From the NCBI GenBank assembly GCA_973895155.1, contig OZ316892.1, positions 17,908,357 to 17,972,356 of the forward strand: a stretch of 64,000 nucleotides of DNA, written 5' to 3'. Origin of the DNA: Marsupella aquatica. Lineage: Eukaryota > Plantae > Marchantiophyta. The notes under the pieces were generated by a model. That model searched no databases. It was given only the letters and a program-made list of their open reading frames with translations, and was not told the origin of the DNA. Shown one piece after another: positions 3,751 to 55,591 of this stretch (position 1 is the first letter of the stretch; each line of letters opens with the position of its first letter). The position numbers were made by a program, and so were the translations under genes.

Positions 3751-4719
3751 TCATTCAGACTTCGCCTCCGTAGTGACTTCAATTTTTGATGCGCCTGCAG
3801 CCTTCTCTGCCTCCCTCTCACCTTGCTTCCTCTTCTCTCTGTCAAGATACTCTTTCAAGAGGTCCTTGGCTTGCGCCAGCTTAGATAGAAGATTTCGGTA
3901 TACGTCGAGGTCTCTGTCTATGCTCAACTTATTGACGTTAAAGGCTTTGGCGAACATCTCGAGAATTGCGGGATCGGACGCTTTGGCGAGTTCGAGCAGG
4001 CGAAAAAGTCCAATGGCAAAAAATCGACTGTAGTGGAAATTGCCCTTCCCTCCAGCTCGCTCTGCAATATCTTTCAGAAGGGTTTCCACTTCTCCGTCTC
4101 TGTCGCCGAAGGACACCACCGAGGTCCCAGATTGCTGCTTTCCCCATTCCTCCAGCTTCTTGGCATCGACCTTATACTGCTCCGGATCCTCCTTCAGCGC
4201 ACCCACGTACGCCTTGAAAATTAGATCCCTATCCTCGGTGCTCGGGAAGCCGTCAAACAGCTGCTCGAACACCGTCACAAACCCCAGACCGAAAATTGCA
4301 TCGTATTGGTAAGTGGCATTGTACCGCATCAGGTGCTGCTGCACGAGCAGCTCCTGCACCACGTTGCTGTAAATGCTGGGCACGGGCCTCTTGTACGCAT
4401 CCAAGAATGCTCGCTTCGTATCTGCCACCGTCGGGACATCCGTGGATGATTTTTGAGCCCCTGCTGCGACAGCTAAAGCCGCGATGGCTGGGACAGCTAA
4501 AGCCGCGATGGCTGGGACAGCAGTAATCCCACTGCGCGACGACGCATTCTTCTTCTTCCCCACCAGCAACTGCGGCAGACGGTGCAATTTCTGCTGCGGA
4601 GAGAAGAAGAACGAGGATGAGCCCGAAGCCGAAGCCGAAGCCGAGAAGATCTCGGCAGAATGCTGCTGCGATGGAAGCTGAGCTATGGCGTGCACCGAGA
4701 GCGACGACATCGACGCCAT
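3751..4719 (-). CDS. THF1: THYLAKOID FORMATION1 / Psb29, chloroplast-targeted, single coding exon (~322 aa)
   Basis: PTVADTKRAFLDAYKRPVPSIYSNVVQELLVQQHL, FHYSRFFAIGLFRLLE and DRDLDVYRNLLSKLAQAK are characteristic THF1 motifs. There is a Ser/Ala-rich transit peptide from the first ATG (4719, MASMSSL). The track's start at 4773 is a TTG. Confidence 0.95.
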   Translation of the reverse strand: MASMSSLSVHAIAQLPSQQHSAEIFSASASASGSSSFFFSPQQKLHRLPQLLVGKKKNASSRSGITAVPAIAALAVPAIAALAVAAGAQKSSTDVPTVADTKRAFLDAYKRPVPSIYSNVVQELLVQQHLMRYNATYQYDAIFGLGFVTVFEQLFDGFPSTEDRDLIFKAYVGALKEDPEQYKVDAKKLEEWGKQQSGTSVVSFGDRDGEVETLLKDIAERAGGKGNFHYSRFFAIGLFRLLELAKASDPAILEMFAKAFNVNKLSIDRDLDVYRNLLSKLAQAKDLLKEYLDREKRKQGEREAEKAAGASKIEVTTEAKSE

Positions 4720-4857
4720 TTGCAATTCCCAGAGAAATCTAGCCAAATAGCAGGCTCCAAACTCCAAACTCAACTCAACTCAACTCAACCGTACTGAACT
4801 ATGGAACTGGGTCACTACTACTGTACTAAACTGTTTGTACAAGGAGAGCAGCAAGCA

Positions 4858-5098
4858 ATCATCAGTTCATCAGTTCAGCTAATAAACCTCAGTTCCCTCG
4901 TTCACGAAAGGAGCGGCAGGAAGGACTTTCACTTTCTTTCGATCATCAGTTCAGTTCAGCTAATAAATCTCAGTTCCGTCGTTCACCAAAGGAGCGGCAG
5001 GACGGACTTTCACTTGCTTTCGATCATCAGTTCAGCTAAATAAATCTCAGTTCCCTCGTTCACGAAAGGAGCGGCAGGAAGGACTTTCACTTTCTTTC
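4858..5098. repeat. ~80-bp tandem repeat, 3 copies, immediately upstream of THF1
   Basis: Unit atcagttcagctaataaa(c/t)ctcagttcc(c/g)tcgttcac(g/c)aaaggagcggcagga(a/c)ggactttcactt seen three times. Confidence 0.9.
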
Positions 5099-5127
5099 TT
5101 CCTGGGAAGGGAACCCAACCCTTGGAT

Positions 5128-6052: not shown

Positions 6053-6056
6053 TAAT

Positions 6057-6411
6057 GCTTTCTTAGACTGTATCCACCAGTCCCTTTACATTCAACCAAC
6101 ACTAAATGTACTGTTTTCTTAGACCCTGTCCACCTTGTCCTTTTAGATTCAGCCAAAAAATAAATGTACTGCTTTCTTAGACCCTGTCTACCGTGTCCCT
6201 TTACATTCACCCACAAAGAAATGTACTGCTTTCTTAGACCCTGACTACCGTGTCCCTTTACATTTAGCCAAAAAGAAATGTACTGCTTCCTTGTAGACCC
6301 TGACCACCCTGCTTCCTTAGACCCTGACCACCCTGTCCCTTTACATTCAGCCAAAAAGAACTGTACTGCTTTCTTAGACCCTGTCCACCCTGTCCCTTTA
6401 CATTCAGCCAA
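6057..6411. repeat. ~59-bp minisatellite, about 5-6 degenerate copies
   Basis: Repeating tgtactgctttcttagaccctgtccaccctgtccctttacattcagccaaaaagaaa. It explains the spurious ORF 6052..6411. Confidence 0.9.
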
Positions 6412-9825: not shown

Positions 9826-11575
9826 ACGCATCATTGAGATTGTCACATCCTCCTTGTGTTTCTTGCATGATTGCAACCCAGTTGCACTTTTGAATCCGAG
9901 TCATCTATTTTTGGAATGTCCCCATATCCCAATCTCTTGTTAGAAGAGATATGACAATGCGATAGGATATGGCATACTGTAGATGTTAAGAATTGACCTG
10001 AGTTTTCAGCTTCTAGTTAGTTTGGCCTTACTAAGGTTAGTTATTGTGGATTACATTAAGATAAGATCCGCTTAGTTTAGGCCCACATGTCTCGGCCCCT
10101 CCTAGGGGGTATAGGCTAGAGGGAGAGCATTCTCTCCCTCATTCTTCACATGTACTTTCTCATGAGCTATGGAGTTTAGATTTTCTCCATCGTGGTGTCT
10201 TGTTGGTATAGTGTGCGATTGAGTGCTCTCATGTTCCACATTGTTGTCTAGCCTGGAGCTGATGATTTCTTATAGTAGACCAGTAATTTTTGGCCTGGGT
10301 TCAAATCTCATCATCCTCTGTGAAAAGCCTAAAATGTGACGACAAAAAAATGAAAACAAGAGAAATCTAAGGAAATTCATAGCTTGATCTATTAATGAAA
10401 GTTGATGAGACCAGGCCCGTGACCAATCTTAGTGGTGGCAAATGGGCTAATTTGGGGGAATGGCACAACTTACCCACTTTTCAACAAACCTTTTTCCTAG
10501 CCCTTGCATCCTTGAACCCCAATTTTTTTGGTTAATTTAAGCTCTTTACTTAAAAATGCCCCTAATTGCTTACTCAACTTTGGCGCCCGAATGCCAAGAC
10601 CCCTTGGGGCAACGGCGCAGCTCAGCCCACTTTCCAACATACCATTTTTTGGCACCCCTTGCATGGAACCCCTTTGGTAACCTCATCCAAGTTTACTTGA
10701 CTCCTTACTTGCCAACGCCAGTGCCCCCTTGGGGTGGTGGTGTGGTTTGTAAAACTTTCCAACATTGGATGTTTGAGAGGAGGTGGTCCCCTCATACATA
10801 CTTTTGGGGACTGGCCACCCTTGGAGTACATTTGGTCCCTATATTTAGGCCTCCAATCCATGCGTCTATGAGGGTTAAACCAAGTGCCAAGAATAAAGGC
10901 AAGGCCGAGAGCACAATGATTGGGGAGTTTGAGAGCGACATGCATCGTCAAGGCCAGTCAAGCAAGGCAGATTTGGGTGAGTCGGCCATGGATGCGAGGG
11001 TTGGCAAAGGCGCAGCCAGGGGCAGTCAGTCAAAGCTGGGCACGGCAGTCTGGCCAAGTGCAATAGTTGGCAGTTGGCTGACCAAGGCACAGGAGGCAAC
11101 ATTGAGCAGCACTCGCGAGGCTGATGCGAGGTAGGGGCTAGTTGAGCCAGTTGGGCAAGGGGTGGACCAATGCAAGGCAAAAGTCAGGCACGGCTTTTGG
11201 GTGAGTCTGGGAGTCGGGGGACTGGGGCAAGGGCCAAGTCAAATCAAGAGGGGAATCGAGCAAGGATGGAGTCACCTTGCCTCGCCCTATTGGAAATCAA
11301 GCAAGTCACAAGGGACTCAAGAGACAGCAGTTGGCAAGGCAGGTAATATTAGGCAAGTCACAGGCGGCACTATGTGCCATTTTTCCTCCTTATTCCTCCT
11401 TATTGCTTACGTGTCCATTTTATTCACCCTGCAATTTTAAAAGACTACCACTGTGGCGCAACGCCTTATTATAGTTCTTGATATCTACAACTATTATTGT
11501 GGGTCCAGCTCAATTTGTTTGACTCATTGGTAGTAAGTCCTATATTTGTTTGTTTTAAAATTACACTAGTACATT

Positions 11576-12070
11576 TTTGCTCATTTTCCGATGCTCCCGC
11601 TGAAACATGAAACAGGCGTCCGATGGCCGGAGTTACGCAAACTTTTGTTTACAAAAGTATCGGAACTTACGATCCCCACAGCTTCGGAAACCCTTTGTCC
11701 GATTCCCAAAACATTGGACATCATTTGCGATACCCCTAATATAGGAACATATCCGATGTCTTGACTATCGGACCCCTCTTCTAAAAATTGTTACTAAGTT
11801 TCCGATCCCTGAAGTATCGCATTCAATGTCCGATTTAGTAAAGAACGGAAATATTGCAATGAAAAATGTATCGCTTAGTGCTTCCGATAGGTTGGGTATC
11901 GGAAATGTTTTCCGAAGTAGTGTTTATCATAAATAATTTTGATGCTACAAGTATCGGAAATGGAGTCTGAAAGGGTTTAAATCGGATATATGTGGTTCGA
12001 GGTCAAGATTTGAACAAGGAGGTCTTCCGATGGGCTTCCGTTGTTTTAAGCATGGGAAATGGTATCGGGA
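11576..12070. repeat. left subterminal repeat array (TCCGAT/ATCGGA)
   Basis: More than a dozen TCCGAT or ATCGGA copies in both orientations, typical of CACTA subterminal protein-binding sites. Confidence 0.9.
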
Positions 12071-12259
12071 ATAAATGGACGTGACTCAAATGCATATATT
12101 ACTTAGGGATTGCAATTTGGATTGTGTCAAGGGACTATATACAGTTGTATCCAAACTTATATCCAACCAATGAATCTTTGGGCACATGTGAAATGACATG
12201 ACAAAATGTATATACTATCCATGAAGATAAAACATATAGGGGTTTTACCTAGGTTGCAT

Positions 12260-15200
12260 CTATTGTAATGAGGGGTCCAAATCCTCTACTACAACTACAC
12301 TTGGCTTGTCTTGAACAATGGATCGTGAGCGAGGGATGTAAGGCATAACAATGGACCACTCTGGGTCATTCGGATAAGGAAGATAGAAAGATTGCTCCAA
12401 ATGATGGGGAAATGCAAATGGATCTGAGGTTCTCCAATTGGAACTAATGACACTAGTTGCACTGGTCTTCAATCGTGTGAACCCACATGCATCTTCCTCA
12501 CAGGTCCGATTATGGCCAACAAGATTCATCCAAAACCATTTGCACTTGAACACCACCTCCTCCAAGGTTGTATGGGCATAATAATTTATGATAAGAATCT
12601 CCTCTATCTTCCCATAGTGGGCCACAATTGAACGTATTGGATTCCGGTCAGAAGTGCTACTTTGTGACTCTTGGGTGAACCACCCCATCACCCCACAATG
12701 TTGTGTTGCTGCTCTCTTCATATCAAGATGTTGGATTCGAAAATGCCTCCCCTTTGACCACATGGCTGTTCGAGTCGTGACCGTGAGTAATGGACCATGA
12801 ACAAGGGTGCGCATGTCATTGGTGACCTTCGAAAAGTGCAAAACACTCTCACCCTGACCCAACAAGGCATCAATCTCTGTCAACTTCTCCTTCATATATG
12901 GGAGAAACTTGGGGAAGAGGCGTGGCCGACGACTATTACTCTTCTCCTCCTCATAAAATGCAGTCCACTCCCTTGCAATCTCTGGTGAGTTATACAACAT
13001 GAATGTGGTGAGTTGCAGACGTTCAGCAGAGCCTAGTAGTCGTTCTCCCTTTGCTCCAGTGAGTCTATCCTCCTCATAATCTGCCTCTCATGCTGACTCA
13101 TCTATCCAACCCCTTGGAGCATTTGGATCAAGTGTAGCCACAATGTTTGTACAATAGAACATACTCTCTGCTCCAAGGTGACGTTCGGCAATGCTACCTT
13201 CCACCCTAGCACGGTTTGATACATATGATTTCATGACTCCCATGAATCGCTCTACCCAATACATCCAACGACAATGTACTGGGCCTGCAATGGCTACTTC
13301 ACGCACTAGATGTACAAGAAAATGAACTTGACCATCAAAGAAGGAAGGAGGGAGTGCTCGCTCCAACTTGCACACAACCTCCACTCCAAATACCTCCATG
13401 GCAGCAATCTCTCCCTCGTTGACCTCCTTTTGACAAACCCATCTCAACAATCTACTCAATGACCAAAGTGCATCCCGAAGATCCTCGCTGCCCAATCCAA
13501 TAATAGCAACTGGAATAACGTGTTGCAATAGACGATGATAATCGTGGGTCTTCAAGAAAGCTGGCCATTTTGGAGAGTCATCTCCACCAAATGTCTTGCG
13601 AAGATTGGCACCATACCCTGTAGGAAACCGCATTGACCCTATCCGCTTGGGAAACTCTATTCGCTCACTCCTTGTGAAAACCCATGGGGGATGGATAGTA
13701 AGGGGAGGGTCAGGGTCCATAGATGGCCAAAAACCATGAAGGCCATGCATCCCCATCTCCTCACAACTCTCCCTCCAATTGTTGTTTTTCTCTCCATATA
13801 GATGGCGGATCAATGACCTCCCAACATTCCCCTCAATATGCATAGGGTCCAATAGATGATTTATCGGCATGTGTTCCCAATATGGAAGTTGTGCCAATGC
13901 AGAAAAACGGGTCATGCCACATCTAGCCAAGGGTAATGGGTCATCTAGATCAGTCACCCTCTCCCATACCTCCTTCCAATATATTGGGTCCTTCGGTAAA
14001 GGCTGAGGTCTTGTGTCTGGCTGGCCCTCATCCGTGTCATACAAAAATGGATCATACCTCCAGTCATGCCCCTCAGGAAGATACTTTGTGTGACCAATGT
14101 AAACTATCTTCTGCAGGGTGGTAGACTTTGGGCACGCCACTCCCTCCAAGTCTAGTCCACAAGTTGGGCAAGCACGATATCCAGAAGTTTGCAAGCCAGA
14201 AATATATCCAAACCCTTCACAAACAATGGTCACAAATTAAAACCCATTAAGTTTTGAAACCAAACCAAAGGGAACAAAATAAACAGAACGATATATATAT
14301 ATATGGGTAGCTGCACAAGTCATACTTAATTTATAAAGAGTTGGGTACCTGGAAGATCATGCATGGTCCACATAAGAATGGCTTTGAGTTGAAACTCACG
14401 GGGTAAACCCCCTGTATGCACTCGACCATCATAGCAATCCACTCCCCCCCAAAGTTTCTGTAGCTCCTCAATCAACGGTTGCAAGTATACATCAATCTTC
14501 TTCACTTGCTTAGGGCCAGGAATAATCATAGATAGGAGCAAATGACCCTTCTTCATGGCCATCCATGGTGGGATGTTGTAGTTAGTGAGGACTACTGGCC
14601 AACAGAGTATGGTTTGGCCTTGCCGGCCAATGCAAATGGGCTAATGCCGTCTGATGCCAAACCAAGGCGAACTTGACGAGGGTCAGTCTTGAACTCACCC
14701 CAACACTCTTCCACAAATCTGTTTGCAGGAGAGTCAACCATCATGCGCATGGTTGGATCCTGAGTAGTGTCTGAACGGTGTTGGGAATGCCATACCATAT
14801 ACTTAGCCAACTCTGCGCATCGAAACTGGTGACGCAAACGAGGAATAAGGGGAAAGTACCTCATAACCTTTTGAGGTACTCTTCCTGTCAACATATCCTC
14901 ACGATATCTTGGCGCATTGCACACAGGACATGTAAGAGCATTTGAGTGCTCCTTCCTGAACAAAACACAATCATTCACACAAGCATGTATGACCTCATAC
15001 TTGAGGCCTATGGACTTCAGCACTTTCTTCGCCTCTTTTCATGATGCTGGCAAGTTGTTCCCCTCTGGTAACATACGATCATGCAATGTCCTGAAAATAC
15101 CATCAAGAAGCAAGTTGCTTGCTCCATGTCTTTGCTGCAAGTTCAGTAATAACATGATTGCTGAAAGACGAGATAATCTAGACCCCTCAAAAAGACAAGT

Positions 15201-15512
15201 TTGTGCATGCTCTTGAGCCTCCTCCCACTGGTGCGAGTGTGGATTCCGTGAAGGAGTATGCCTATGAGGAGGAGGTAAGTCAATATCCTCCCAGTCACCT
15301 GGGTCATGATCACCCCGGGGATCACCCTCATCTGCATCCATGAATTGGTGCATCAACTCATCCATAGCCCGGTCCTCATCCACTCTTTCTTGGGTAGCAT
15401 TAGGTAGTTCATGTGGAATGTCCATATCCTCAAAAGGTTGACCCCCTTGCCTACCATCCATGGCCTGGAGGAGATGTTGTCGCACAGCTCGTGATAATAC
15501 CTCAATATCTGG
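12260..15512 (-). pseudogene. CACTA TnpD/Tnp2 transposase (Transposase_21, DUF4218, DUF4216-like regions), disrupted
   Basis: Motifs IHACVNDCVLFR...CPVCNAPRY, MRYFPLIPRL, DPRQVRLGLASDG, IIPGPK..IDVYLQPLIEEL, MHDLPG^FGYISG (intron 14348-14215), DPMHIEGNV, LKTHDYH, GPVHCRWMYWVERFM, FKCKWF and DPFAFP. Lesions: in-frame TGA at 15039-15041, 1-bp deletion near 14600 (YSV/WPVVLTNYNIPPW), in-frame TGA at 13088-13090. Confidence 0.93.
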
Positions 15513-15699
15513 CTGAACAAATGCATTCTATCATACACAAAAGAAAACAATGAGAATGATATAAGTCCAGGTCTCTCAACCAACAATTGAGACATCCATA
15601 TATGAATGAGTCAAAAGACTCCATAGCTCTTGAAACCAATTAGAGAATGACTCAAGTAATATTTTTATAAAAGTGAACATATACACATGTTTGTATGTG

Positions 15700-16659
15700 C
15701 TATGAAGGACAACACCGTATGGCCATCTTAGGCGCGTTCCAATCATAGTCACAAAAGAGTTCCTCACCAGCCCTAATAGTCCTAATGGCTATAGTCATAA
15801 CATGGTCATCCATATGCTTGACATAGTAAGGTGGTGGCGGTGCCCCAAAAATCTGAACCCACTCTACATTTGGTTGAAGTCCTCGTCCTCTCCCTTTGGT
15901 ACTATTGATATACCTAGCAATGATATCACATCGCACAGGATCACCATCAATCATCCTACAATGCCAAGGCCTCTTGAGGACCTCATCCGCATCGGAATCC
16001 ATTTGCAATGCATACACTCCAAATGATGGTTGTTGCCACAAAATAATATTCCAATTCTTGGCAGTGTATATAGGGCCAATGTAAGGAAATAAGTGTTCCC
16101 CATCATAACCTCTTCGCCATGGCTTTGGATGGACCACAATGTCCTCCAAAGCAAATAACCCAAATCCTACATCAACACCAAGGGAAGATGACTGCACTAT
16201 CCAATGATGGCCCCATATCTCTATAGGGGCATTAGTGGGTATGCCTTGAGGGATTTTGAAGATCTCAGACGAGAAGTCCTTCACAAGAGGCAACGCCTTT
16301 CCAGTGAGATATGACAATCCCAACCTACCCTCCACTACCACATAACCCTCACCTGGCTTCATCATAGGCGGACCTACCAAGTTTGGGTCTTGAGACTCAC
16401 GAGTGCCCAATGGTTTGTAATGTCTCCTATGCCTATGGGAGCGTGGGCAGGTGCATAAAACCCTAGATGGAGGTACCTCCAAGTCACCTTGCTCAATGTC
16501 CTCCACCCTTGCTACAGGTACACTCCCGCCCTCACCATTGGGGCGCGGGGCAGGAGGAGGGGGTGTAGATGTTGATGCAAGCATCCGCCTTGCACTAGCC
16601 AAGAATGTGTCTAGCCATAGCTCTTTAGAGATCAATGGAGGAGGGGGCCTACGGGGCAC
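15700..16659 (-). CDS. SET-domain (lysine methyltransferase-like) terminal exon inside the CACTA element
   Basis: Open 319-codon frame starting right after an acceptor (ttgaatgaatAG|GTG). SET motifs in order: GVDVGFGLFA, FPYIG, IDG, IARYINS, PNV, TIAIRTIRAGEELFCDY (domain about 15745-16203). Confidence 0.85.
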   Translation of the reverse strand: MPRRPPPPLISKELWLDTFLASARRMLASTSTPPPPAPRPNGEGGSVPVARVEDIEQGDLEVPPSRVLCTCPRSHRHRRHYKPLGTRESQDPNLVGPPMMKPGEGYVVVEGRLGLSYLTGKALPLVKDFSSEIFKIPQGIPTNAPIEIWGHHWIVQSSSLGVDVGFGLFALEDIVVHPKPWRRGYDGEHLFPYIGPIYTAKNWNIILWQQPSFGVYALQMDSDADEVLKRPWHCRMIDGDPVRCDIIARYINSTKGRGRGLQPNVEWVQIFGAPPPPYYVKHMDDHVMTIAIRTIRAGEELFCDYDWNAPKMAIRCCPS

Positions 16660-16774
16660 CTATTCATTCAAAAAAAATCCAAAATTAATAAATATATGAT
16701 GATAGTGGCCATGATTGTAAGTGGCAAATTATGTTTCCTTCAAAATGTGTGGGGTGAGAGTATGGGGTGCATAC

Positions 16775-17031
16775 CTGGCGAGCTGAATGTCGTGGTAAAT
16801 CAGGTTGGTGTTGCCCATAATTCTCAATATGCTCAATACACTCCCAAGCTTGACGAACCACCATTCCCTTACATCGCACACACCAACATGGAATGGGGCC
16901 TAGAGGAGGAGGAGGATGATGCGGCCTCGGAGGGGGGGGGGAGGAATGTCCCCCTCAGAAGATGACGAGTCCGAGTCAGAAGATGACGAGTCCGAGTCAG
17001 AATCTGACTCGGAACTCCCAGAATTTGACAT
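16775..17031 (-). CDS. putative first coding exon shared by the TnpD and SET products (Ser/Asp-rich leader plus transposase-associated CxCxxC...H motif)
   Basis: ATG at 17031 (MSNSGSSESDSDS...) then IPCWCVRCKGMVVRQAWECIEHIENYG, ending at a phase-0 donor CAG|gtatgc. The length is 257 nt, so one extra base is needed, most likely in the G10 run at 16932-16941. Confidence 0.6.
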
Positions 17032-17845
17032 CTGCCCATCAATGTGAAAATTAATCACATGTCAAAAATCTTTCCCACCCATATTAAGTACCCTAAATAC
17101 AATATGTCAAGATTGGAACCTAGTTTACACTAAGCGAATAATTAAAAATAATGACTGTGCATCTTACCTAAATGATATCCGCGCTGAACAATGCCTACTA
17201 GGATCTTGGCCTTAAAATATATGCTAAGACAATATCCAAAATGTCTGCACAATTAAAGGAATATCATCAGAATTTATCTATACATATGTCCCCATAGAAT
17301 AATATCCACTATATATTGTGGCCATCAATGAAAAAAGTTTAGCCAAATATATACTTAAAGTGCTCACCTCCAAATGATAAAGGGAGTACATCATACCTTT
17401 CGGATGCAAGGCCTATCGCGATGCATAATGCATTGCAAAAATGGACCTACAAAAATACAAACAAAGAGAACGACCCAACCCTCCGCAAAAAAATACTGCA
17501 CAATACACGCACATGAGGTTAACTTTGTTTGGCCCCCAAAATTAAATCCACATACAAGGTGGATAAATTTGTCAAAACTTTTAATGTGAGTGGATCAATG
17601 ATCATACCATTCAACCCCAAAAGTATGTTGTCGTAAGGGGGACGTTACCGCACCTATAACCGGCTTTTATTCAAGAACCCCACCGCCCAAACAAAATCCG
17701 GCTACTCAACCAGGCCTACAATTACAATGCAAGTTTTCACATCAACTAAACTTACATTTCCTTACCACATCCCCAGCCCCCCCCCCATTGACTAACTTAT
17801 TATAAATCCATCCTTAAAGGCATAAAAAATAATGGACAAGCTAAG

Positions 17846-17933
17846 TCCGATCATATTGGAAGAGGGGTCCGATACTTTAAGCATCGCTATTTCCGATCCC
17901 GTTTTTTATAGTTGAAGTATCGGATGTTCCGAT
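17846..17933. promoter_or_regulatory. internal cluster of five TCCGAT/ATCGGA motifs between the divergent genes of the CACTA element
   Basis: Motifs at 17846, 17868, 17892, 17919 (reverse) and 17928. The segment gaagaggggtccgata matches the reverse complement of 11766-11781 in the left subterminal array. Confidence 0.6.
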
Positions 17934-17993
17934 TCTTAAAAAGTCAGATGGAGGGCACAATAGGGTTTGGTACTTTTCCCGACTAAAGTACAA

Positions 17994-19094
17994 ATGTCTT
18001 TGTATCGGGCTTGGTTTCGGATGCAACTTGGGAGGAGCTGCCGAGTGAACACAGAGCAGAGGAGCACGCATTGGAGGTCGAGGCTATGGAGGGGAATGGC
18101 ACGGATGGGGGGAGGAGACGAAGCAGCCAGGGTGGGTGGAGATGGAGCAGGGCCATCGCAGCAGATCTCGGACATTATGGCAGAGATTTTCAAGAGGCAA
18201 GCAGGCCTGTCTGCTGAAACTGCGGCCATAGCAGCTCAATTGACCCAGGGCCTGATTGACGAATCCAGGCAATCTGCCATAAGTGAAGCAGAGAAGGCTT
18301 TCATGGAGAGGCTAGAGAAAGGAAAGGAGAAAAAAAAAGAGGAAGGAGGAGAGGAAAGGCAGGCCAGTGGAGGCCCTCTCACCACAAGAAAGAGAGAAGA
18401 GCTTAGAAAGGAGGCTCGAGCTGCAGAGAGGGCAAGGATTGAGGAAGAGAGGCTACGAGTAGAGGAAAGGGCCAAACGGCCAAAATTGTTCATTAATAAG
18501 GGAGGAGCTCCGATGACAAAGAGCTACAATTTGTTCAGAAGTCAACTAGGGCAGGTGTTGAGGACAAATTTCAGCCCCTTAGACTACTGGGGGAAGAAGA
18601 AAGAAGAGGAGAAATTTCAAGCAAGGGAGCAAGTGAAGGAGCGATTCTGTAATGGCTGCTTCCTGGATGATCGATGGCTGAATAAGAAGATCTCACGTTC
18701 ACTTGCAGATAGACGTAATAATGTGAGAGAAAATATGAGGAAGTACCTGGCAGATTGTAAGGAGGAGGCAGAGGTGATCAGGCAGAGAGATGCCCCGGAT
18801 GAGATACCAGCTGATGCCTGGTCTGCTTGGATTGATGCTGAGCTACAGGTTCATGCTTGGCAAGCGAGACGTCACTAGCAGGCTGAGCTCGATGAGGCAG
18901 AGAAGAGGGTCCTTTCAGGACAGACTGTTGACATCCCCCTCCTGCAACAAAACTTAATGGAATGGGAGGCCAAATTAGCACTGCTTGGAGACCCTCCACT
19001 TTACATTCAAAATGCAATTGAGAGGGTGGAGAAGAGGCTTGCAGTTTCTCACCGAATGGGGCAGGGTGGAGCGCATCGTCTCAAAGCAGAGTTT
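17994..19094 (+). pseudogene. TnpA-like / Ptta-En/Spm accessory protein of the CACTA element, interrupted
   Basis: Charged coiled-coil N-terminus, WLNKKISRSLADRR and PDEIPADAW..W motifs. In-frame TAG at 18876-18878, then the same frame continues to HRMGQGGAHRLKAEF (HxxGxxG, as in Transposase_24) and a donor gtgagt at 19095. Confidence 0.65.
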
Positions 19095-19529
19095 GTGAGT
19101 CCTCTGCTCCCCTCCTCCTTGCTCGCACCAAATAGCTCCAAGCACCACAACTGCAACTGGATCTCATGCTGTCATTGATAGGGTCCTAGGGTTAGTGCCA
19201 GATGCCACTACCCGATCAGAGAGTTATCGCCCTCGTGCCAAGAAGAGGAAGGGACGACATGCACCAACATATGGATAGGCCAGGTAGCTTAGCATAGGAC
19301 CATTTGTAGGTAGGCCGCGATGCCATGCAGGTTGAGATGGATTATACACTTGTACATGTAAAGGTTGTACTTTCCATGCTAGAGGAAGCCATCCTCTTTT
19401 GTATATATAATGGCAGGGGTTTTCCCCCTTTTGAGTCTCACTACCATTCTTGCTACCCATGCTCACTTCCATGCATCCCAACATTGTAACCCCCACACCC
19501 CCAAAATTAATAATCAGAAATTTTACCCC

Positions 19530-20049
19530 ATCAATTATCCGATACTCCTCCGATCTTAAAACTATCAAAATGTCCGATTCTCTAAAACTCGGAATTTTCC
19601 ATCCCCAGAGAATCGATCTTTCCGATACCCTCGGTTACGGTCTTTCCAATACTTCTACTAATGGTATTTCCGATATTTCTAACGATGGTATTTTCGATCC
19701 TCTTATTTACGGTCTTTGCGTAACCTTTTGTTATGCAATATGCGATATTCAGAGTTACCCAAATTCCGATTCTCTACGTATCGGAAGTGTATCGGAAACA
19801 CTCAGCTTTTGGGCCGCCTCCCCTCTTCCCTTTCCGATTTTATGAACATCGGATGGCTGTTTTTCCGTTATTGTCGAGTACGCAAAGTGCGTTAATTTGA
19901 GTATCGCAAAGTCCGATTATCTTCCGATTGTCGTTATCCGATGGGTTGAGGATCAGAATTTGCGATACATTTAGAGTCGGATGAGATGTTTTTCTTGGAA
20001 AAATTTTACAAAGGGATCCGAAGGTGTTCGTATCGGAAATTGGCCTCAT
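19530..20049. repeat. right subterminal repeat array (TCCGAT/ATCGGA)
   Basis: More than a dozen copies in both orientations. Explains the spurious ORF 19450..19845. Confidence 0.9.
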
Positions 20050-21894
20050 AATGTACTAGTGTTAAGTAGGCATAATTTATAAGTATGATATCAAGAACTC
20101 ACTGACAATATTGAATCTCTCCAAAATCTCATTCATGTTATATTTTTGGGTGAGAATTAATTTTGGTGGTTTTCATATTGCCTCTTTTACCTGGTTGTCA
20201 AGTTTGCCAAAACTCCCTCTTAACCCTTGGCACCTCCCTTGCCTAACATGAGGATCTGTCTTGTAGTCTATGAGTGCCCTCCCTTGCGCAGGGATGGGCG
20301 AAACAGATGGGGAGGGAGAAGGAATGAATAGTCATGAATGGTTGTTGCCACAATCATACATGTTCCTCTGTGTGACGCAAACCCATGATGTGCCCAAATG
20401 TGGTGCCAAAACTTTTGGAAGGAGTTTCTAGTGGGGGTACACAATTATTATTATTTCTTGCTCATCCCTACCTCTCACATTCTGTTTTCACCTCTGTGGA
20501 ATCCTGTAGTTTCACCTTGCTCCTTCTCGTGACAAATTGTTCATCACAAGGGTGAGGCAGGAAGTGTCTTGGAAGCAAGGAGCTAGGCACTCACCTGCAT
20601 TTGATTGTCTCTCAACGTTTTTGTACGATGGATATGCATTGGGCTTGTCTAAATAAATATGAATTTTTATGAGGATCTCTATTTTGCATATTAAGTAAAA
20701 GTTGGCATTACTAGCCCCGGTTACTAGCAAACAAATCCATAAACTCTAAAACTATTAATAACACGGGTTTTTTTTAATTTTTTTGTGGAAAGACAAGTAT
20801 TCTCTTTGTTTGGGAAATTGTTCTTTATTATCATGATTTGTCTAGTAACTAATGACAAATGTAAAAAAGCAAATTCACATCAATCTCATTAATGGCAAAA
20901 TAATGGAAACAAAGAAAAAACCCATAAGTGTAGAACCATAATGATCATGTTGAAAAGGAACCAAGGTTATATAGATCCACCTTCATGAGAGTAGAAACAC
21001 TTGATTTCCTTCTTTTCAAAAGTTAATGCATTCTGGTACACACTTTTATTAGGGTCGGTATACTGTTTGACCTTAGTTGTAATTTCAAAATCAATAAGGT
21101 TACAAGTTAAGGGATTCTGCTTCACACATCTGCAATGGTAGGTGAACTGTTTGACCCCAATTGTAACTTCAAAATCAATAAGGTCATAAGTTTAAGGCAA
21201 TTGGTACACACATATGCAAGGTAGGTTTGACATGTTGTAACTTGAAGCAAGGATATAATACTTTAGAGTTAACATTACAATAATCTAACATTAAATACCA
21301 CTTCAAAATAATTTCCTCATAACTAGACCCTTCCACATGTTGACATCCTAATAATCCTTGCATCAAACTTCAATGTAAGCTTATCATAATCAAACCCTGG
21401 CTTCTATTCACCCCACCTTCCACATGTTCTTTTACCTCAAGTTGTATTCTTAACATTTTTTAACAATGTACCTGTTATATGTCCTTCAAGAGGGTTAAGA
21501 GAAGGCTCTATATGTCGCATTTCAAGCTTATTTACGGACCCCATGAGAAGTCTCTTGCAAATTCTCTGCCACGAGGTTGCGCCACATCATCACAACCAGC
21601 CACAAACAGGAATGATCCTACTTTTAACAATGACAAACATGCACATTCCTATTTGTGGCAAAAGTAATGTAATTTTGGGGGCGCCATGCCGTAAATATTA
21701 CATGTAAAAAAACAAAATACAAAGGAAGAGATGTCATTTAGTAAAATAAAGTTACCATTATGATGTTTGTCAAAGATGTATCAGTGTTTTATATCAAAAT
21801 GCTTGTATGTTTTAATTGTTTGCAAGTTTGAAAAAACCAATTGATAGAAATGTACATAGTTAAAACCCCTTTGGCTTCACATTGTAAAACTAAA

Positions 21895-31396: not shown

Positions 31397-32203
31397 ACCG
31401 CGCGTTAAATCTACACTGCGTTAATGCTCCGTGATCTTCCTGGGGCCCCGTACACTGCCCGTCCCAGTCCCCGATGTTGCTGCCCGCTCCGGCCCGAGTT
31501 TGCCAGAACATAAACTAATACTCTATCATTTTTTCACCCGCTCCGGCCCGATTAACATTGTGCCATTGACTTTAGGTTTATGTTTTACCCTTCACCTTTT
31601 GTCGCTCGCTCCAGGCATATCAACTTTGTGCCATCAACTTCTTCCTTGTGAAGTTGTGGTTTATGTTCTGGCAACATTTTTGTCCAACAAAGTCATGCCC
31701 CGCTAGGGAGTCGTGCTTGCTTCGTAACAAAGTCTAAGTGTTCAAGTACAGCCTAGTACTTTGGTTAGGAATCATGCTTGATAGAGTCTTGGTCGCTGTT
31801 CTGCCAAATGTTTCTTCTCTATGGAATTGTGGTTCATGTTTTGGCAGCACTTCTTTCCAATGGAGTCATCTTTGTTTCATAATAGAGTCTAAGTGTTCAG
31901 GCAGTACTTTGGATAAGAGTCATGATTGGTTTATGTTATGGCAAACTTGGGCGGGAGCAAGCAACAACAATGGGGACTTGGGCCAGAGCAGGCGAAAGCA
32001 AGTGAAGGGTGCCAGAACATAAATTCAAAGTCGATGGCACAAAGTTGTTCAAGCCGAAGCAGGTGACAAAATGGTAGAGTATTAGTTTATGTTCTGGCAA
32101 ACTCAGGCCGGAGCAGGCAACAACATCGGGGACTGGGACGGGCAGTGTACGGGGTCCCAAGAAGATCGGGGAGCATTAGTGCGGTGTAGATTTAACACGC
32201 GGT
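31397..32203. mobile_element. non-autonomous Mutator-like element (807 bp) with ~200-bp TIRs
   Basis: TIR ACCGCG(C/T)GTTAAATCTACAC... extending about 200 bp. Perfect 9-bp TSD CAACCAAAT at 31388-31396 and 32204-32212. Confidence 0.92.
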
Positions 32204-41854: not shown

Positions 41855-44800
41855 ATGGCGAAGTATTTCACATATTTCGTACCGGCATTCCTGGTTGCGG
41901 TAGGTTTTATAGACCCTGGGAATTGGGTAACACTGATTGAAGGTGGCTCTCGTTTCGGGTACGAATTGACATGGGTCGTTTGTTCCGCGACCTTGCTTGC
42001 CATGGTGCTCCAAATGGTCTCGGCACGACTTGGAGTGGTCACGGGGAAGCATTTTGCGCAGGTATGCTGTTTGACTCCTCTACTTGTCCCATATGTGAAG
42101 ATTTTCTGCTACGAACCTGCATGACAATGTCATCAAGCACCCGTTATCTGATTACGTTCTGATGTTCTTATCCATTCGCGGCCCGCTTTCTCCATCCTTA
42201 CATTGGATCCTTCAAGCCGGGGCATATCTCTTTAGCAAGTGGGCTTCAGTTCAGGCAATGACAGCTCCTCTCTGGCTCTACTCACCGTCTCCATCCCATA
42301 TCATTTGCTTCCGCAGCTTCAGAACAGTAGAAAAGTGCTCGCGTCTTTGTTTGTGCCTATGTTGCTATTCCAGCTGAATGGAAACCATCAGAGCTAGGAG
42401 AGACGAGTCTTTGAAGCCTATCGGAGCGCGGCGTCCAGGATTTCTTCCGGTGCTTCTAAATTGGACACGAACAAGGAACAAGCTGGAATCCCCAAATTAG
42501 TGTGCAGGTTGTGTTGTAGATTAGGCCCAATTGACGATCGAATGTCGTTCCATACTTATTAAGGTAATGTGAAAGAACTCTCTACCTTAAAATGAAAAAC
42601 GCTCGTGGAGCTCGTGACCCTAGAGATTGCGGCGCCAATTTTTCGATCGGATCCTTTGGCACTCGGTCTGTGAGCACGAATGACAATCATTTACTTTCGC
42701 GTGATTGGATAGGTTGTCAATGATGGAAGCCTTTCCTCTTGTAATGTCTGAATTGCGTGTTTTGCAAAAGGCATGACCTATTTGTGATGTGATTTCTTCT
42801 AGGTCTGTCGAGAAGAGCTGCCTCCGGGAGTGTGCACTCTGCTTTGGGTCCTTTGTGAGATGTCCATCATCACTCTGGACTTCACAATGGTACGTTTTGC
42901 GCCGTCTCTTCCCTATATTTATCAAGTGGCATCAGATGTTTTTGTCGAACTCCAACACTCAGGAAGACCAAGTGTCGTCTTTTCTTTTCACCTGACTGTA
43001 TCGCTAGCGGGGTCGTTATAGCACTTCGGGCATGTAACCTGTACATGTACTGCTTAGGTGATACCCTTCTCCGTGACTACAGAAATGTCCTCATTCATTT
43101 TGGGAATGACTTTTGCAGGTTCTTGGTACAGCTATTGGATTGAATGTTATTCTCCGAATCCCTACGCTCTCCGGTCTTCTGCTGGTGGCTGTGGATTCCT
43201 TGATATTTATTGCAGTCTTGCCCCTCATGGTAACACGTCTTGCCTGAACGCTTTTGCGGCCCGTTTTTGTGTCTTCTTGTGCATTGCGATGTATACGCAT
43301 GCGAAGTGTTCTTCTGTGATGACTCTATCGTTGTGTGCTCACATTTCAGGAAAGGGAGAGAGCCGAGTTTATCACTTTTGCGATATTTGGAACGGTTGTG
43401 CTCTGCATCGTACTGTCTAATGTACCTACCAGCACTTTACCAGTGTCAGCGGTAGTGGGTTTGTTGCCAAAACTGAGGCACGAAACACTGTACGCGGCAA
43501 TCAGTATCGTTGGTGCCAATGTCATGCCTCACAACTTCTATCTACATTCGGCTCTCGTCAAGGTATGATGCTTTTACTGTTTCTTTGTAGTTGAAGTGAT
43601 GTGTTAACTCTCCTTCATAAATTTTATAATGTCGAAAGCGTCCTATCGCGGTTCACATCCGCGGAATTCTTAATTTGTTTCGTAGAGCAATGCCTATGAT
43701 TGGCATGAACAAGGTGCTGTTTGTCATGTTAATACTCTCGTGCATAGAACAGTATAGTTAGTTACGTTCTCCTTGATGGTTACTGACTTAACCGTTTTTG
43801 ATCTTCATCAAAGCAGGATAAAAGCCGGGCTAGTCAATCGCTGAGTACCTTGTCGAATTACTGCTCCTTGGGCACATTATATGCCTTTGTTGCTGTCCTT
43901 GTGGTAAACCTAGCCGTTTTCAGTGTGGCTGTCGCTGAGTTTCACAACTTTGGATTTGTGGTCCTCACACTCCAGGATGCACAGGCTCTTGTAGAACAGG
44001 TGATTTGGTCTCCCAACCATTTTCGTCGTCTCTTAAGTGATCAGTGACCCGGATGTTTAAATAATGCAATTTTGGGCAAGATTCTGTTATTAAGAATGTG
44101 CCAAGCGTCATAAACTATCGGAATCTTTATCCAAATTATCCACCATAAGTTGGGGAGTGGTTTCGTGTCCAGTTAAGATTGGTTACAATTCTGCCAAACC
44201 ATTAGGGGCTGTCCTTGTTTCCTCGCCTGATTGGGTGTATTCTGGTCTGTTATGTCAAACTAATGCACATCTCTGTCCGTTTGTCCCGCAGATTGTGAAC
44301 AATTCAGTCTGTCCAGCATTTTTTGGTCTAGCGTTGTTATGTGCTGGGCAGCTGTCGACGCTAAATGGCAGCTCGGCAGGGCAGATTGTTTCAGAGGGAT
44401 TTTTTGATTACCAGATCCATCCTTGGCAGCACCGGATCTTGATTCGTGGAGTATTGCTAGTTCCGGTAGCCGCTTGTGTATATTTTTACGGAAATGAGGG
44501 GATCTATCAAATGCTTATGTTCTCCCAAGTCGTTCTGGCTCTTTTCCTCCCTTTGACTGTTGCTCCCCTCATCAAGGTTACGTCTTCTGAAAGGATTATG
44601 GGTTCCAACAAAAATTCCTTCATTCTGGAGATCGTAGCATGGTTGTCCCTTGCGAGCTTAAGTGCAGTGAATGTCACCCTCATCTTTGACCTTGTTTTTG
44701 GAGACACGGAAGATGGGTCCTCTTTTGGTGGATTCGAGTACCTTCCTGGCGTCGACTGGTTAACAGAGGTTTTGGGAGAGAGTCTTCAAAGTTTTGTATT

Positions 44801-47783
44801 TGGTGTGATTTCCATCGGGACCACTTTGTCACTTGGTTTTCTGGTCTGGTTAACTTTTACCCCGCTCCAATTAGATACTCAAATGGCGCTGGAAAGACCT
44901 TCGTGGATAGTCGAATATGCAAGGCGGGAAGAGGAGGCACTGGGGAGCACTTTAGCTGTGCAGAATACTTTTGTGAATTCATTACATGCGAACATTATTG
45001 GCCAGGGCAATGATATTTATGCAATTCATGGAGAGGATTTGCCTCTAACTCCTATATCCCATAGCGATGTGGAAACGCTGCAAATAAAGTCAGGGGAAGA
45101 AGTTGATGAAGGTTCTTCTGCCCTCGTCAAGTTTCCCGATTTTCCACAAGAACTTCATTTGGACAGCTTGGATGACGTTCCTCTTCAGCGTGCACCTTCT
45201 CCGAGCTCCTCTTCGGTTGTAGCCTCTCCCATGTCCACTCCTCCAGGATCCGCAACTAGCTCCGTGAGTACGAGGAAATTGCTTGAGGTTGACCAGTCCC
45301 CACCAATAGAAGACACAGAGACTGTTGCTCTTAAAGAGGCTGAGGCTGAGGCAGAGGCAGAGGCAGACGCAGACGCAGACGCAGATGCAGAATTGCTGGG
45401 AAAAGATGACGACGAAATGGATGTATGGGGGAGCTTGGAACAGGACAATGTACTTGCAGATGCTCTTGATGTGAATGTTAATGATAGCACCTCTTCCTTG
45501 CAACTTGACGGACGTATATCAGGAAGAAGTGACACAAGCATCGGGAGTGAAGGAGGTAGTGGAAGCGGTAGTCTCTCAAGAATTTCCGGGCTAGGTAGGG
45601 CGGCTCGACGCCAGTTTGCTGTGATTTTGGATGAATTTTGGGCAACGTTGTTTAATCTTCATGGTCAGCCGGTTGTGCCACAAGCTCAAAGTCATTCTCA
45701 GCTGGCTGCTCTACTGGATGATGACTCCCGTGAGATTTCTATTTCGCACGAGGGCCATACGCTAGACTCAAAGCAGCAAATTTTGTCAGGGAAGAGTCAA
45801 CATAATATGAGTGATCAATCTCGTAGTATGGACGCAAATCCTCTCCGTCCCCCCACGTCATCTCAACTATCACGGGGGCACTTCCAGGAGGATGGTTCCT
45901 CCCTGGGTTACAAAAGTGAGCGCAGATACATGAGCATGCATCTGCCTGCCTATCATGAAGATTATGACTATCAACCAGCCACAATTCATGGCTATCGAAC
46001 TCCGTCATTCCCTGGGAGAGCAGGGGGTGCTGCTACCAGCCAGAGAGCAAGGCACGTGCACCAGGGAGTATCACTTTTCCGGTCTCAGACCTCCCCAAGT
46101 TATGGTCTTCAAGGCGATATTGATAGGAGTACCCCGGGAGGGGAGTACAACGTATTTGATTCACGTGAAGCATCATCGAGCTCTCAGTGGGGAACCGATG
46201 TTGTGGGTCGTGGGAGTTCACTTGACACCAGAGGTCCTCATCGTCATCTATCCCGAACTGAGAAGCAGTTGACTGAGTCTGAAAGTAAAAGCTATGATTC
46301 TAGTCAATGGGATCCCCTTGTGTATAACAGGTCACGGGATTCGTTCAGGGGGCGATGGGATCCCTTAGTCTATCGTGCCACAGGAGAGCTAGACATCAAG
46401 AATACTGTGGCAACAGGGGTCATGCAGGAGATGAACCATCGGTCAAACTTTGGCCACTCTCCCATTGGTCGTGGTGTGCATGGTGATCACGTAGAAAGTG
46501 CGCCATTGGTCTTTGATGAGTTGTCTCCTTCACAATCGCATAGAGATGCCTTCTCGATTCAAACTCCCACCTCCAGACCTCAGACCCAGTCCTTATGGTC
46601 ACGGCAGCCTTTTGAGCAATTGTTTGGTGCTACTGATGGTGATGGTCTTCCTTCTACTGTGCGGAAGCTAAGTAGGAGCGCTCCTCGCTTGGTGCAACCG
46701 TCACATGCCGATAATACTGTGTCAGCTGGGGGAGAAATAGAGTTAGATGTCCTGGAAAATCTGCAGAATTGTCTAGGGAAGCTTCTTCGTTTGGAAGGTT
46801 CAGAGTGGCTATTTCGGAGGGACAATGGAGCAGACGAAGATCTTATAGCTGCTATAGCTACGTTCCAGAAAAAGTCAGTGGAAGCTGAAGTAAGTGAGCT
46901 CCACAGGTCACTTGGTAATCAAGAATATCAGTTTGAGGGTAACAGTCGGGCTCATGCTCGTAGAAGCAACAGTGGTTCAATGTCAGCAAAACGACAGCGA
47001 ACTGTTGTTCCTAATTGTGGCAAGGGTTGTGTTTGGGATCCTTCACTTCTGGTCAGCTTCGGTGTGTGGTGTGTGCACCGTTTCCTGGAGTTATCTCTCA
47101 TGGAAAGTCGACCCGATTTGTGGGGAAAGTACACGTATGTACTGAACAGGCTGCAGGTATGATTTGTCAACGCCTTGGAGTTTTGAACTTAGTTCTTTTT
47201 GCTGACTAAGATGCCCTGCAGTTGTTATCTTCATGGGTAGCTGTTTAGAACTTGGATGTAAAGAGCTGATCAATGGGACTTTACGCAGAAATTTGCGATG
47301 ATGATTGTATTGGGTGGCATTGGGGGCCACACTAACTTGTGCGACTTTATTGCGGCCTTGCAGGGTATTTTGGAGCCTGCATTTTCAAAGCCCCGAGTAG
47401 TCCCTCTTTTTTGTAGGTGCGTCAGTCAGGGGATTGATACAGGTAGGCGCAAGACTTCAACTAAACTAGGAAGTGTACATGATCATGGCAATGTGGATTT
47501 TGAAAGCTCCTCAATTCAGAGCTACCCGCATCCATGGCCTTGGGGCAGAAATACTAGTTCTGTCAAAGGGAAGGGTCTGAGTGCTGCAACCTTCTTGGAT
47601 ATGATTAAAGAGGTGGAAACAGCAGTGGGTTCTCGTAAGGGGCGGACAGGCACCGCTGCTGGAGATGTGGCATTCCCTAAAGGAAAAGAGAATCTGGCAT
47701 CTGTGTTGAAAAGGTATAAACGGAGGCTTTCTAGTAAGCCTCCAGGATTAGCTGGACCGGTTAATGGTGGTCGCAAAGTGTAA
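41855..47783 (+). CDS. EIN2: ETHYLENE INSENSITIVE 2, 7 coding exons, ~1361 aa
   Basis: Exons 41855-42061, 42803-42889, 43119-43229, 43350-43562, 43817-43999, 44292-47156 and 47364-47783 (all GT-AG, phase 0). NRAMP-like N-terminus. CEND motifs [83 protein letters not shown] and NLS LKRYKRRL. Confidence 0.97.
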
Positions 47784-53100: not shown

Positions 53101-55591
53101 CAGATTACACGCAACAGCTCTGATGCATTCCTCGGTATTAAAAGAGGATATTATCCACAAGTTTATACCGAATGGTCACACTCTGAGCATGCAATCTGAC
53201 AGTGCACGTATCAATATATCTACAATAGTTACTCACGCCATACAACCCGTGTCCTTCCCTTCTAATAAGGCATTTGACGGGTGAAATCGATGGTCAACAA
53301 GAGCAGCTCACATTAACGACCTGGACTGGTCATGGCCACAATGCAAGGTAGAGGACTGCGACAACAGCCTCAGCAATTCGTACCTTGGCTCGCTCTTCCT
53401 CGTTGGTATCCATGATGTAAGCCATGTACCTGAGGACCAATTATTCACACAGATTTTAAAAACAGATGATCCCAGCAACTTGAACACCCCCTTACAATAC
53501 TCGCACTTTCAGAGTCATTCATTGGCAGTCCTCAAAACAGAAAGGATGCCACTTCGCAAACCGTCGGTGTGGTTGTCAACAAGACGCAATAGAACACAGA
53601 TTCCGAGGTAGGAAAAGTCCCCCATCAAAGGTGCAATACAGCGGAAAGTATCCACAGCATGTTTACTGATAAATGAAAAGAAGGCTGTCAGCATTTACGC
53701 TGAGACTTACCAAGATTCACGATTCTTCTCTTTTGCTTCACGTTCATACTTTTGAATTGTGCGTTCATCAACCATATCACTGAGGTACAGAATTTGTCCC
53801 CCGATGGTTGATTTCCCGGCATCTGCAAGAATCGGCAAACCAAGGCAGGTAAACCAAGGTAGGTAATAAACTCACTCACTTGCTTGAAGCACGTATCACG
53901 TGAAAGATATCCCACCACCACGCAGAAACCAAGAGACTCAACCTATGCGTGGAAGCAAGACTGTGTGGTGGGAGCTCTTAAAAGTTATGGACGCAACGCA
54001 GCATGGAGACCATCCTTCTGCTGGACGGCGGACAAAAAATGCTTCAACAACGACGCTCACCGACGTGACCGATGAAGACAACGTTCAAATGCTGTCTCGT
54101 ATCGAGCTCCTCTGGAGTCTGCTCTTCGTCTTTGCTCTTGTAATTAGTGTCATGTGCCTCCTCGGCTGCCATAACATGTTCGACAAAATAGTCAACCAAT
54201 CCGACTCCATAAACAATGAGAATGAATCAATACAGATCTCGCTCACACCAAACATATTAGAACTCCCAAACCCTCTGCAAGTGCTTACTTTGATGGTCTA
54301 CGGGTGTGTGACTCACTCGTAAAAGATAACTACCAACTCATTACAAAGTATCAAACCTGAAACATCACTACCCTCCCTGGAACGAAGAGTGAGAGTACCT
54401 TCGAAGACGAAAGAATGGGATACAAATGACATCTATTGCAAAACACCGAGAAGATGGTACTATTCGAATATCGACCCAAAGAAATCGACACGCAAATAAA
54501 ATAAGAACCTTAAAAATCATGCAAGAGTAGTCTTTTGCGCCCTACTCAAATGTACGTAACAACTCTACTCGAGAAGATCGGAACAAATTTACAAACGCAA
54601 CCCTAAACCATTCCTTAATCTCAAATTTGCAAACCTCTCAGATAGAAAAACCTCAGAAAAGCAGTTTACGGTACCTACAAGATACAACCTCTTCCTCATG
54701 ATAACACCCTCATTGATATCAACTTCAATGGAATGACAGACTCTTCCTCGCGACAACACCCTCATTATTATCAACTTTGACAGCATGACAACAGCGTGCA
54801 CACTGTGACAGACTGAGCTCGAACAGAATCCCTCCAACCTTGACAAATTCGTCTGAACCTACATTTTCTCAACTACTCTCAAGATAAGAAGTGACAAACT
54901 TCGAATGCAGATAGGATTCACGATGATGCAATCCAAGCCACTTCGTTGCCAATTCAGCCTCAGAGCAGAGCAGAGCAGAGCAGAGCAGAGCAGAGCAGAG
55001 CAGAGCAGAGCAGAGCAAAGCATAGGGTGGCATACCGTGATCTCCGTTCACATCCTCTGTAGGCGGAGACTCCTTTCCAGAAACGGCCTCCTCTTCTGTA
55101 GCAGCAACAGCCGGGGCCGTCTTCTCGTCAGCTTGGTGGCTCGTCTCAGAAGATCCAGGAGCGGGTGCAACCTCCGTCTCTTCCTTCTTAGGAGCTGCTT
55201 CTCCAATATGGAGAGCAGCTAAGGCTGGCAGACCATCTGTTGCCAGAATCCGATCTAACGATGGTTCGGACGGGGCGGGAGTCGGCGCGGCCACAGGAAC
55301 AGGGACGGGAGCAGGCGATTCCAAAACCTGCTGCCTCACCGGAGCTGCTGCGGGGACGATTGTCGGTGCAGGAATCGGCGAAGCCATAGCAGAATTGGCG
55401 AACGAGGGAGTCATCATCGGAGGAGTGAAAGCGGGAGCTGAGGGATTGAAAGTGAAGGAAGGCGCATCCGGGTTGAAACTGAAGCCCTTCCCTCCCACCT
55501 GGGCGGTCGGTTTCGGTCGAGATTGCGGAGGCGGAGGATTGGTACCCGTCTCCTGCTCCATGTCCTCCCAAGAATCAACCGGCTCCGCCAT
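50182..55591 (-). CDS. eRF3: eukaryotic peptide chain release factor GTP-binding subunit eRF3 (GSPT/Sup35 family), ~15 exons
   Basis: Spliced exons give [10 protein letters not shown]^[22 protein letters not shown]^[15 protein letters not shown]^[18 protein letters not shown]^[69 protein letters not shown]^GRTVAIGKV. Stop TGA at 50182-50184. Confidence 0.96.
54961..55017. repeat. (CAGAG)n microsatellite in eRF3 intron 1
   Basis: About 11 perfect CAGAG copies just inside the donor at 55035. Confidence 0.95.

Follow-up and report, generated by a model that had tools for sequence, protein, structure and literature searches.

A SET-domain exon within a CACTA transposase gene of the liverwort Marsupella aquatica, probably spliced as an alternative to the transposase body

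In maize En/Spm and in Arabidopsis EN/SPM3, TnpA and TnpD are produced by alternative splicing, according to the accessible text of two reports (PMC13547354; bioRxiv 10.64898/2026.08.24.746577). SET domains have been described as accessories of several other transposons. The available portion of PMC12730594 cites HarbingerS and Phytophthora MuDR families that carry a SET histone methyltransferase, and the excerpt at hand of bioRxiv 10.1101/2025.02.11.637652 reports SET in Helitrons and in Plavaka PAG2. VANC of the VANDAL elements, a DNA-binding factor of MuDR type, brings about hypomethylation (cited in the accessible parts of PMC12730594 and bioRxiv 10.64898/2026.08.24.746577). The counter-silencing factors known so far from plant transposons, TnpA and VANC, bind DNA and bring in host activities. 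A SET domain and transposase sequence occur in one gene in SETMAR (Metnase), a domesticated single-copy host fusion.

SET-carrying transposons are already known, and what appears to be new in the locus described here is SET as a probable alternative exon of a CACTA transposase gene. The locus lies in a stretch of 64,000 nucleotides, the whole of which was analysed and is called the window. No SET domain used as an alternative exon of a plant or bryophyte CACTA transposase was found in the literature, and Repbase Reports or the bioRxiv supplements (962 Spm proteins) may hold such families. The portions available of PMC12973397, PMC4158355, PMC11982613 and PMC11735767 contain nothing on a layout in which an exon with a Cys/His motif (exon A) is followed by SET and TnpD. 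If our reading is true, a histone-writing enzyme encoded by the element and kept across distant liverworts is a different strategy from that of TnpA and VANC; in these plants H3K27me3 still marks transposons (PMC11982613, accessible part). Both claims, on splicing and on the enzyme, can be tested directly, given a SET domain that is small and folds well and three splice junctions that are defined. In annotations of bryophytes, such exons also raise the number of SET genes artificially and appear as chimeric SET-transposase models.

The element occupies positions 11564..20061 on the minus strand (8,498 bp) and belongs to the CACTA/EnSpm superfamily. Both ends carry the 12-bp terminal inverted repeat CACTAGTACATT, beginning with CACTA, the 3-bp target site duplication TTA is found on either side (11561-11563 and 20062-20064), and the transposase is of the TnpD type. 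Subterminal TCCGAT/ATCGGA motifs are clustered at both ends, with 14 motifs in 19500..20061 (24.9 per kb, compared with 0.27 per kb outside the element) and 13 in 11564..12100 (24.2 per kb). A smaller cluster of five TCCGAT motifs at 17800..17980 lies between two divergent genes and is likely to mark their promoter region. Contigs from all four DNA runs (two studies) join the flanks from 11560 to 20062, skipping 8,501 nt, which fixes the ends of the element. A second flank joint, from 11563 to 20103 with 37 other letters, was seen in the same four runs (region 11560-11592 / 20062-20103), and in run X1 one contig leaves the flank and continues for 29 nt inside the element. The site that looks empty may represent a paralogous flank instead of an empty allele.

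The element resembles En/Spm, as described in the accessible text, in its CACTA ends, 3-bp duplication, subterminal motif clusters and TnpD domains, and apparently also in giving two products per unit. It differs in that the alternative product would be a SET protein instead of the HTH DNA-binding TnpA of En/Spm, in that the SET exon precedes the transposase body, and in having its possible TnpA-like gene apart from this unit and in divergent orientation. With HarbingerS and the MuDR families it shares the combination of a DNA transposon and a SET accessory, but those belong to other superfamilies and oomycete hosts, and the descriptions available to us mention no exon shared with the transposase. 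No Harbinger-type transposase is present in the element, which has Transposase_21 and CACTA ends. The red-algal Plavaka PAG2 is closer in belonging to the EnSpm/CACTA superfamily with SET among its accessories, yet in the excerpt at hand PAG2 stands as a gene of its own and combines SET with a DNA methylase, in elements of 17-19 kb, whereas here SET lies inside the gene for the transposase, which is of type Transposase_21. Pfam scans of the element's open reading frames gave no DNA methylase domain, with SET the only domain in its exon, and no VANC-like match; the likeness to VANC, as far as its accessible descriptions go, is a functional analogy only, that of an element-encoded chromatin regulator. 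Unlike SETMAR, the element is multi-copy, and its SET domain and its transposase body are predicted never to occur in the same product.

Exon A (16775..17031, minus strand) has a Ser/Asp-rich start, a run of prolines and a putative zinc motif, CxCxxC-x13-H-x3-YG. It reads CWCVRC...H...YG and ends at the donor CAG/gtatgc at 16775, which is in phase 0 in the CWCVRC frame and in frame with both the SET exon and TnpD. The exon is likely to be preceded by an intron behind a non-coding first exon (17032..17167, minus strand), with the donor TAG/gtaaga at 17168 and the acceptor gggcag/ATG at 17031. Contigs of diverged copies match the window on both sides of this intron and differ between 17041 and 17160, and the metagenome locus L005 has an equivalent layout. 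From the ATG at 17031 to the donor at 16775 there are 257 nt, which is not a multiple of three; the run of ten C at 16941-16932 puts this ATG out of frame with CWCVRC in the window copy. The run is hypervariable, with 13, 9, 8 and 7 C in contigs of other copies compared with 10 here. Net changes of -5 or -2 across this region restore the frame in some diverged contigs, and some close ones are out of frame.

A Cys/His domain at the N-terminus is the usual layout of plant CACTA transposases. The first-pass annotation had called the motif of exon A transposase-associated, a label that is here kept only tentatively, with no match of Pfam Transpos_assoc (PF13963) to exon A of the window and a match in one of 12 scanned proteins, a Riccia relative, below the cut-off (E 0.031). 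Neither did a profile of alignment A4 match the motif to a solved structure.

The SET exon (15700..16659, minus strand) comprises 319 codons and a stop. It follows exon A after an intron of 115 nt (16660..16774, minus strand; 111-117 nt in the metagenome loci L001 and L009) and begins at the acceptor gaatag/GTG at 16659, in phase 0. Downstream of it, the 3' splice region of TnpD (15508..15527, minus strand) holds three candidate acceptors. The first AG, gtatgatag/AAT at 15527, is in phase 0, offers the strongest T tract (13 T in 21), lacks any AG in the 40 nt upstream, and resembles catag/AAT of a distant family. The acceptors ttcag/CCA at 15512 (phase 0) and ccag/AT at 15508 (phase 1) are the second and third AG. 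The TnpD body consists of an exon with the start of Transposase_21 (14349..15527, minus strand), a phase-1 intron of 134 nt (14348-14215) and a last exon with the end of Transposase_21, DUF4218 and DUF4216 (12260..14214, minus strand), the last of these scoring 28.8 bits in Pfam, just under the cut-off of 30.6. The first TnpD exon has a stop at 15041 and a frameshift near 14600 and the last exon a stop at 13090, so with the ATG of exon A out of frame the window copy is broken; it yields neither full protein and would move in trans.

The five splice sites named in the first-pass annotation (16775, 16659, 15512, 16353 and 15508) all exist with the phases that it gave. Its proposal that exon A is spliced in frame either to SET or to TnpD agrees with the frames and with the conserved phase-0 sites, and is amended in one respect: the main TnpD acceptor is likely to be 15527, the first AG with the richest T tract and a counterpart in relatives, with 15512 as an in-frame alternative. 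The architecture that we consider probable is one pre-mRNA with one phase-0 donor and two competing acceptors. Use of the near acceptor 16659 would give a short zinc-motif-SET protein terminating in the SET exon, which is likely to be an alternative terminal exon. The far acceptor at 15527, or alternatively 15512, would skip SET and give a transposase with the same N-terminus. The 3' end of the shorter form would be made within the 172 nt past the SET stop, where no poly(A) signal was identified. The two splice forms and the intronic 3' end, like the activity of the enzyme, are predictions from the sequence.

The nearest named relative of the SET protein is a gene model of the liverwort Calypogeia fissa, CAM6082608.1 (P0001), with 58% identity at 99% coverage. 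It reads SAQQ/VPHRP, that is, exon A is joined to SET exactly as in splicing from 16775 to 16659. An exhaustive search gave 79 representatives at E<=0.001, and nine of the first ten SET relatives identified are models of Riccia sorocarpa. The Cys/His motif (CxCxxC...H...G) precedes SET in the Riccia models P0025, P0041, P0056 and P0071 and precedes a partial SET plus TnpD in P0085; Transposase_21 was matched by two of these SET-relative models. A separate search for longer SET relatives (560-2000 aa) returned none among 3,775 candidates, a weak negative in that the exhaustive search gave two such models.

A metagenome scan added 19 loci with 34-44% identity, which in effect represent two lineages, L001 and the L002-L018 family. 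The order divergent gene, exon A, SET and TnpD is found wherever the parts are covered; in L015 TnpD was not matched despite a long downstream flank. All nine loci that extend over the exon A motif have a phase-0 GT donor behind it. Of 11 loci with sequence at the SET acceptor, nine preserve AATAG and two read AATAA; its phase is 0 in six of the seven loci computed, L005 carrying an internal frameshift. For TnpD, the acceptor CATAG/AAT is found in 14 loci and is in phase 0 in all five that could be computed. Intron lengths are similar in the window and its relatives, and the distance from the SET stop to the TnpD acceptor is 146-172 nt. In contigs of diverged copies, sequences on either side of differing introns match the window, both for the pair exon A and SET and for the pair SET and TnpD. 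The distant family, with SET 41-45% identical to that of the window, thus has the same gene order and the same three phase-0 sites. In-frame splice sites kept in distant relatives make it likely that one transcript gives either the transposase or the SET protein.

The open reading frame from 16659 to 15700 matches SET in Pfam (PF00856, E 9.8e-8, 32.8 bits against a cut-off of 22.4), and the domain spans residues 166-305. An AlphaFold2 model based on 62 sequences has a pLDDT of 89 and finds SET domains in Foldseek (E 6.7e-7). In VIA it aligns with SETD8 over 134 residues (Z 11.6, rmsd 3.7), and the Foldseek and VIA matches with Z of about 11 are tied among SETD8, Set1/MLL, ASH1L, EZH2, SET7/9 and LegAS4, so that a substrate cannot be named from the fold. 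Searching PDB with the single sequence returned nothing but two weak matches to an integrase C-terminal domain (E 0.6-0.9), which were taken as chance. The window SET has the motifs GFGLFA (GxG), FPYIG (YxG) and EELFCDY (ELxxxY). Among 63 relatives, counted as proteins matching both C-terminal patterns with redundant cluster members included, the GxG pattern is found in 50, FP[YF]xG in 54 and the terminal Tyr in 60. The His of the NH motif is absent from all 63, which have NS (59) or QS (4) instead, and the protein lacks the post-SET Cys cluster. The solved sequence closest by profile is LegAS4 (E 7e-4), which likewise has no NH His (YINFS) and which, according to the title of its structure entry, was crystallised with a histone H3 peptide; the missing His need therefore not mean inactivity. 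The conservation of SAM-binding and catalytic motifs across a family of 24-66% identity argues for catalysis.

Our working idea is that SET is an element-encoded lysine methyltransferase that marks the chromatin of its own element and so keeps it expressible or mobile, and we regard this as plausible at a little under an even chance. Recruitment would depend on protein-protein contacts, made either to the transposase or to the divergent TnpA-like protein sitting on the terminal TCCGAT clusters; recruitment by the small shared motif binding DNA alone is less favoured. The alternative that survives best accepts the splicing and gives SET another role: methylation of a non-histone substrate, a self-limiting repressive mark or binding without catalysis. 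This is also quite possible, with the probability of a non-histone target or of a self-limiting mark only slightly below that of histone writing on the element's own chromatin. It is favoured by the fold, which names no substrate, by the missing NH His and by the lack of a recognised chromatin-reader domain in the SET protein. The conserved SAM-binding and catalytic motifs and the case of LegAS4 speak for a histone writer, as do other transposon accessory proteins that counter silencing, in the accounts available from PMC12730594 and bioRxiv 10.64898/2026.08.24.746577.

A different path to TnpD had been suggested from a donor-like site inside the SET exon, CAG/gtgagg at 16353 (16347..16355, minus strand; phase 1), to the phase-1 acceptor at 15508. 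Exon A would then always be spliced to SET, and TnpD would carry about 100 extra linker residues. The site is the best donor-like site in the SET reading frame, with seven of nine matches to the U1 consensus, but 45% of 2,000 synonymous-codon shuffles of the same frame hold a phase-1 site that is equally good (P 0.45). Tandem acceptors are common as well: of the window's 3,484 YAG sites, 1,116 have another AG in a shifted phase at most 20 nt away. Of the 14 loci covering this place, 12 have a phase-1 GT, mostly CAA/GTGAGG, that is two codons farther from the VEGR motif on its upstream side, but these 12 are one family and L001 has no such site. The match of diverged contigs to the window begins at 16353, and the diverged subfamily has GGG there and not CAG. 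In none of the five loci with computable phase does a phase-1 acceptor lie 69 nt or less from the TnpD acceptor, and in the window 15508 comes as the third AG behind two in phase 0. The site is doubtful, this route is unlikely, and it was rejected as the main path to TnpD in favour of splicing from 16775.

Slightly less probable still is a tandem arrangement, in which exon A belongs to the SET gene only and TnpD is a separate gene with its own start or is read from another transcript. The Calypogeia TnpD model CAM6082121.1, which begins inside the TnpD exon and has no exon A, fits such an arrangement, as does the report that En/Spm families in Arabidopsis switch between alternative splicing and split genes (PMC13547354, accessible text). 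However, a T-rich phase-0 acceptor in frame with the exon A donor heads TnpD in the window and in the 14 loci, a Cys/His domain is usual at the N-terminus of plant CACTA transposases, and the 146-172 nt between SET stop and TnpD acceptor leave little room for a terminator and a promoter. One transcript with a choice between two acceptors remains our preferred reading.

The history of the SET exon was followed in the same relatives. In all ten pairs of L001 and the L002 family, which are not independent, dN/dS of SET is 0.27-0.33, so SET is under purifying selection with dN/dS of about 0.3. Within the L002 family, values of 0.22 to 1.29 (five pairs) are as expected of decaying copies, and pairs of the window and the loci are saturated; neither of these sets serves as support. 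The trees of SET and TnpD have an identical topology for six lineages, with a rank correlation of 0.75 between identities; the pairs for Calypogeia and for Riccia (P0041/P0085) are drawn from different copies, and the JGI pairing is assumed because the contigs are equally long. Purifying selection and congruent trees in six lineages show that SET is an old integral module. This bears out the view of the first-pass annotation that SET is integrated and not random cargo, together with the conserved order and sites and the exon A-SET joint in Calypogeia. That SET is a recent random cargo of the intron, in frame by chance, is very improbable and largely refuted by conservation: the window SET departs from contigs of other copies at family-conserved Asn and Gly (codons 246 and 249) and two exons share a phase one time in three, but the same position and phases recur in the family that is 41-45% identical, SET is present in Riccia and Calypogeia, selection and trees agree, and the decay is private to the window copy.

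An ancient bryophyte CACTA lineage may encode a histone methyltransferase of its own as an alternative last exon, so that splice choice would toggle between writing chromatin and jumping, with the zinc module or a TnpA-like protein docking the enzyme on the element ends. This combined reading is more tentative than either of its parts.

The divergent accessory gene (17964..19178, plus strand) is supported by open reading frames and by homologs in place. Its frame is interrupted by a stop at 18876-18878, where contigs of other copies differ, with a variant at 18877. Homologs in the same place and orientation are found in L004, L006, L008, L009 and L018 (45% identity over 62 aa). The product is presumably helical, and we take its C-terminal HRxGxGG motif to be reminiscent of TnpA. 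The reading frame gave no convincing Pfam match, scored 0.78 in the atlas to unnamed plant clusters, and its single-sequence model has low confidence (pLDDT 50). TnpA-like proteins are restricted to flowering plants in the accessible part of the literature. The divergent gene and the clustered TCCGAT terminal repeats could offer an alternative targeting route for SET.

The gene models of relatives are predictions and are mutually inconsistent; those of Riccia join SET to TnpD at three places. In P0045, P0059, P0066, P0085 and P0087, part or all of SET is fused to the N-terminus of TnpD at differing points, and the four of these that were checked for species are from Riccia sorocarpa. Such fused models are probably prediction artefacts on decayed copies. 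Two further SET relatives of 503-506 aa, P0075 (Calypogeia fissa CAM6103004.1) and P0107 (CAM6081997.1), may come from a different kind of element or from a domesticated copy. The N-terminus of P0075 is rich in Cys and His but of another type, and Pfam finds no transposase in this protein. In L013 about 0.8 kb is added at the second transposase intron (L013:2186-3110) relative to L002, L007 and L018, probably by a nested insertion.

Outside the element, the window contains a reading frame of 1,022 codons at 44094-47162 (plus strand) with the C-terminal part of Nramp (Pfam E 9e-27) followed by a long tail, which we take to be EIN2-like. The coding region of a thylakoid formation protein (THF1) lies in one open reading frame at 3751-4779 on the minus strand (Pfam E 1.2e-69). 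Two tandem arrays, at 4870-5108 and 6054-6411, have repeat units of about 81 and 57 nt, respectively, and a (CAGAG)n run lies at 54961-55020. At 31397-32203 there is an inverted repeat with arms of 188 nt, 87% complementary and with internal short repeats, similar to a MITE or a foldback element.
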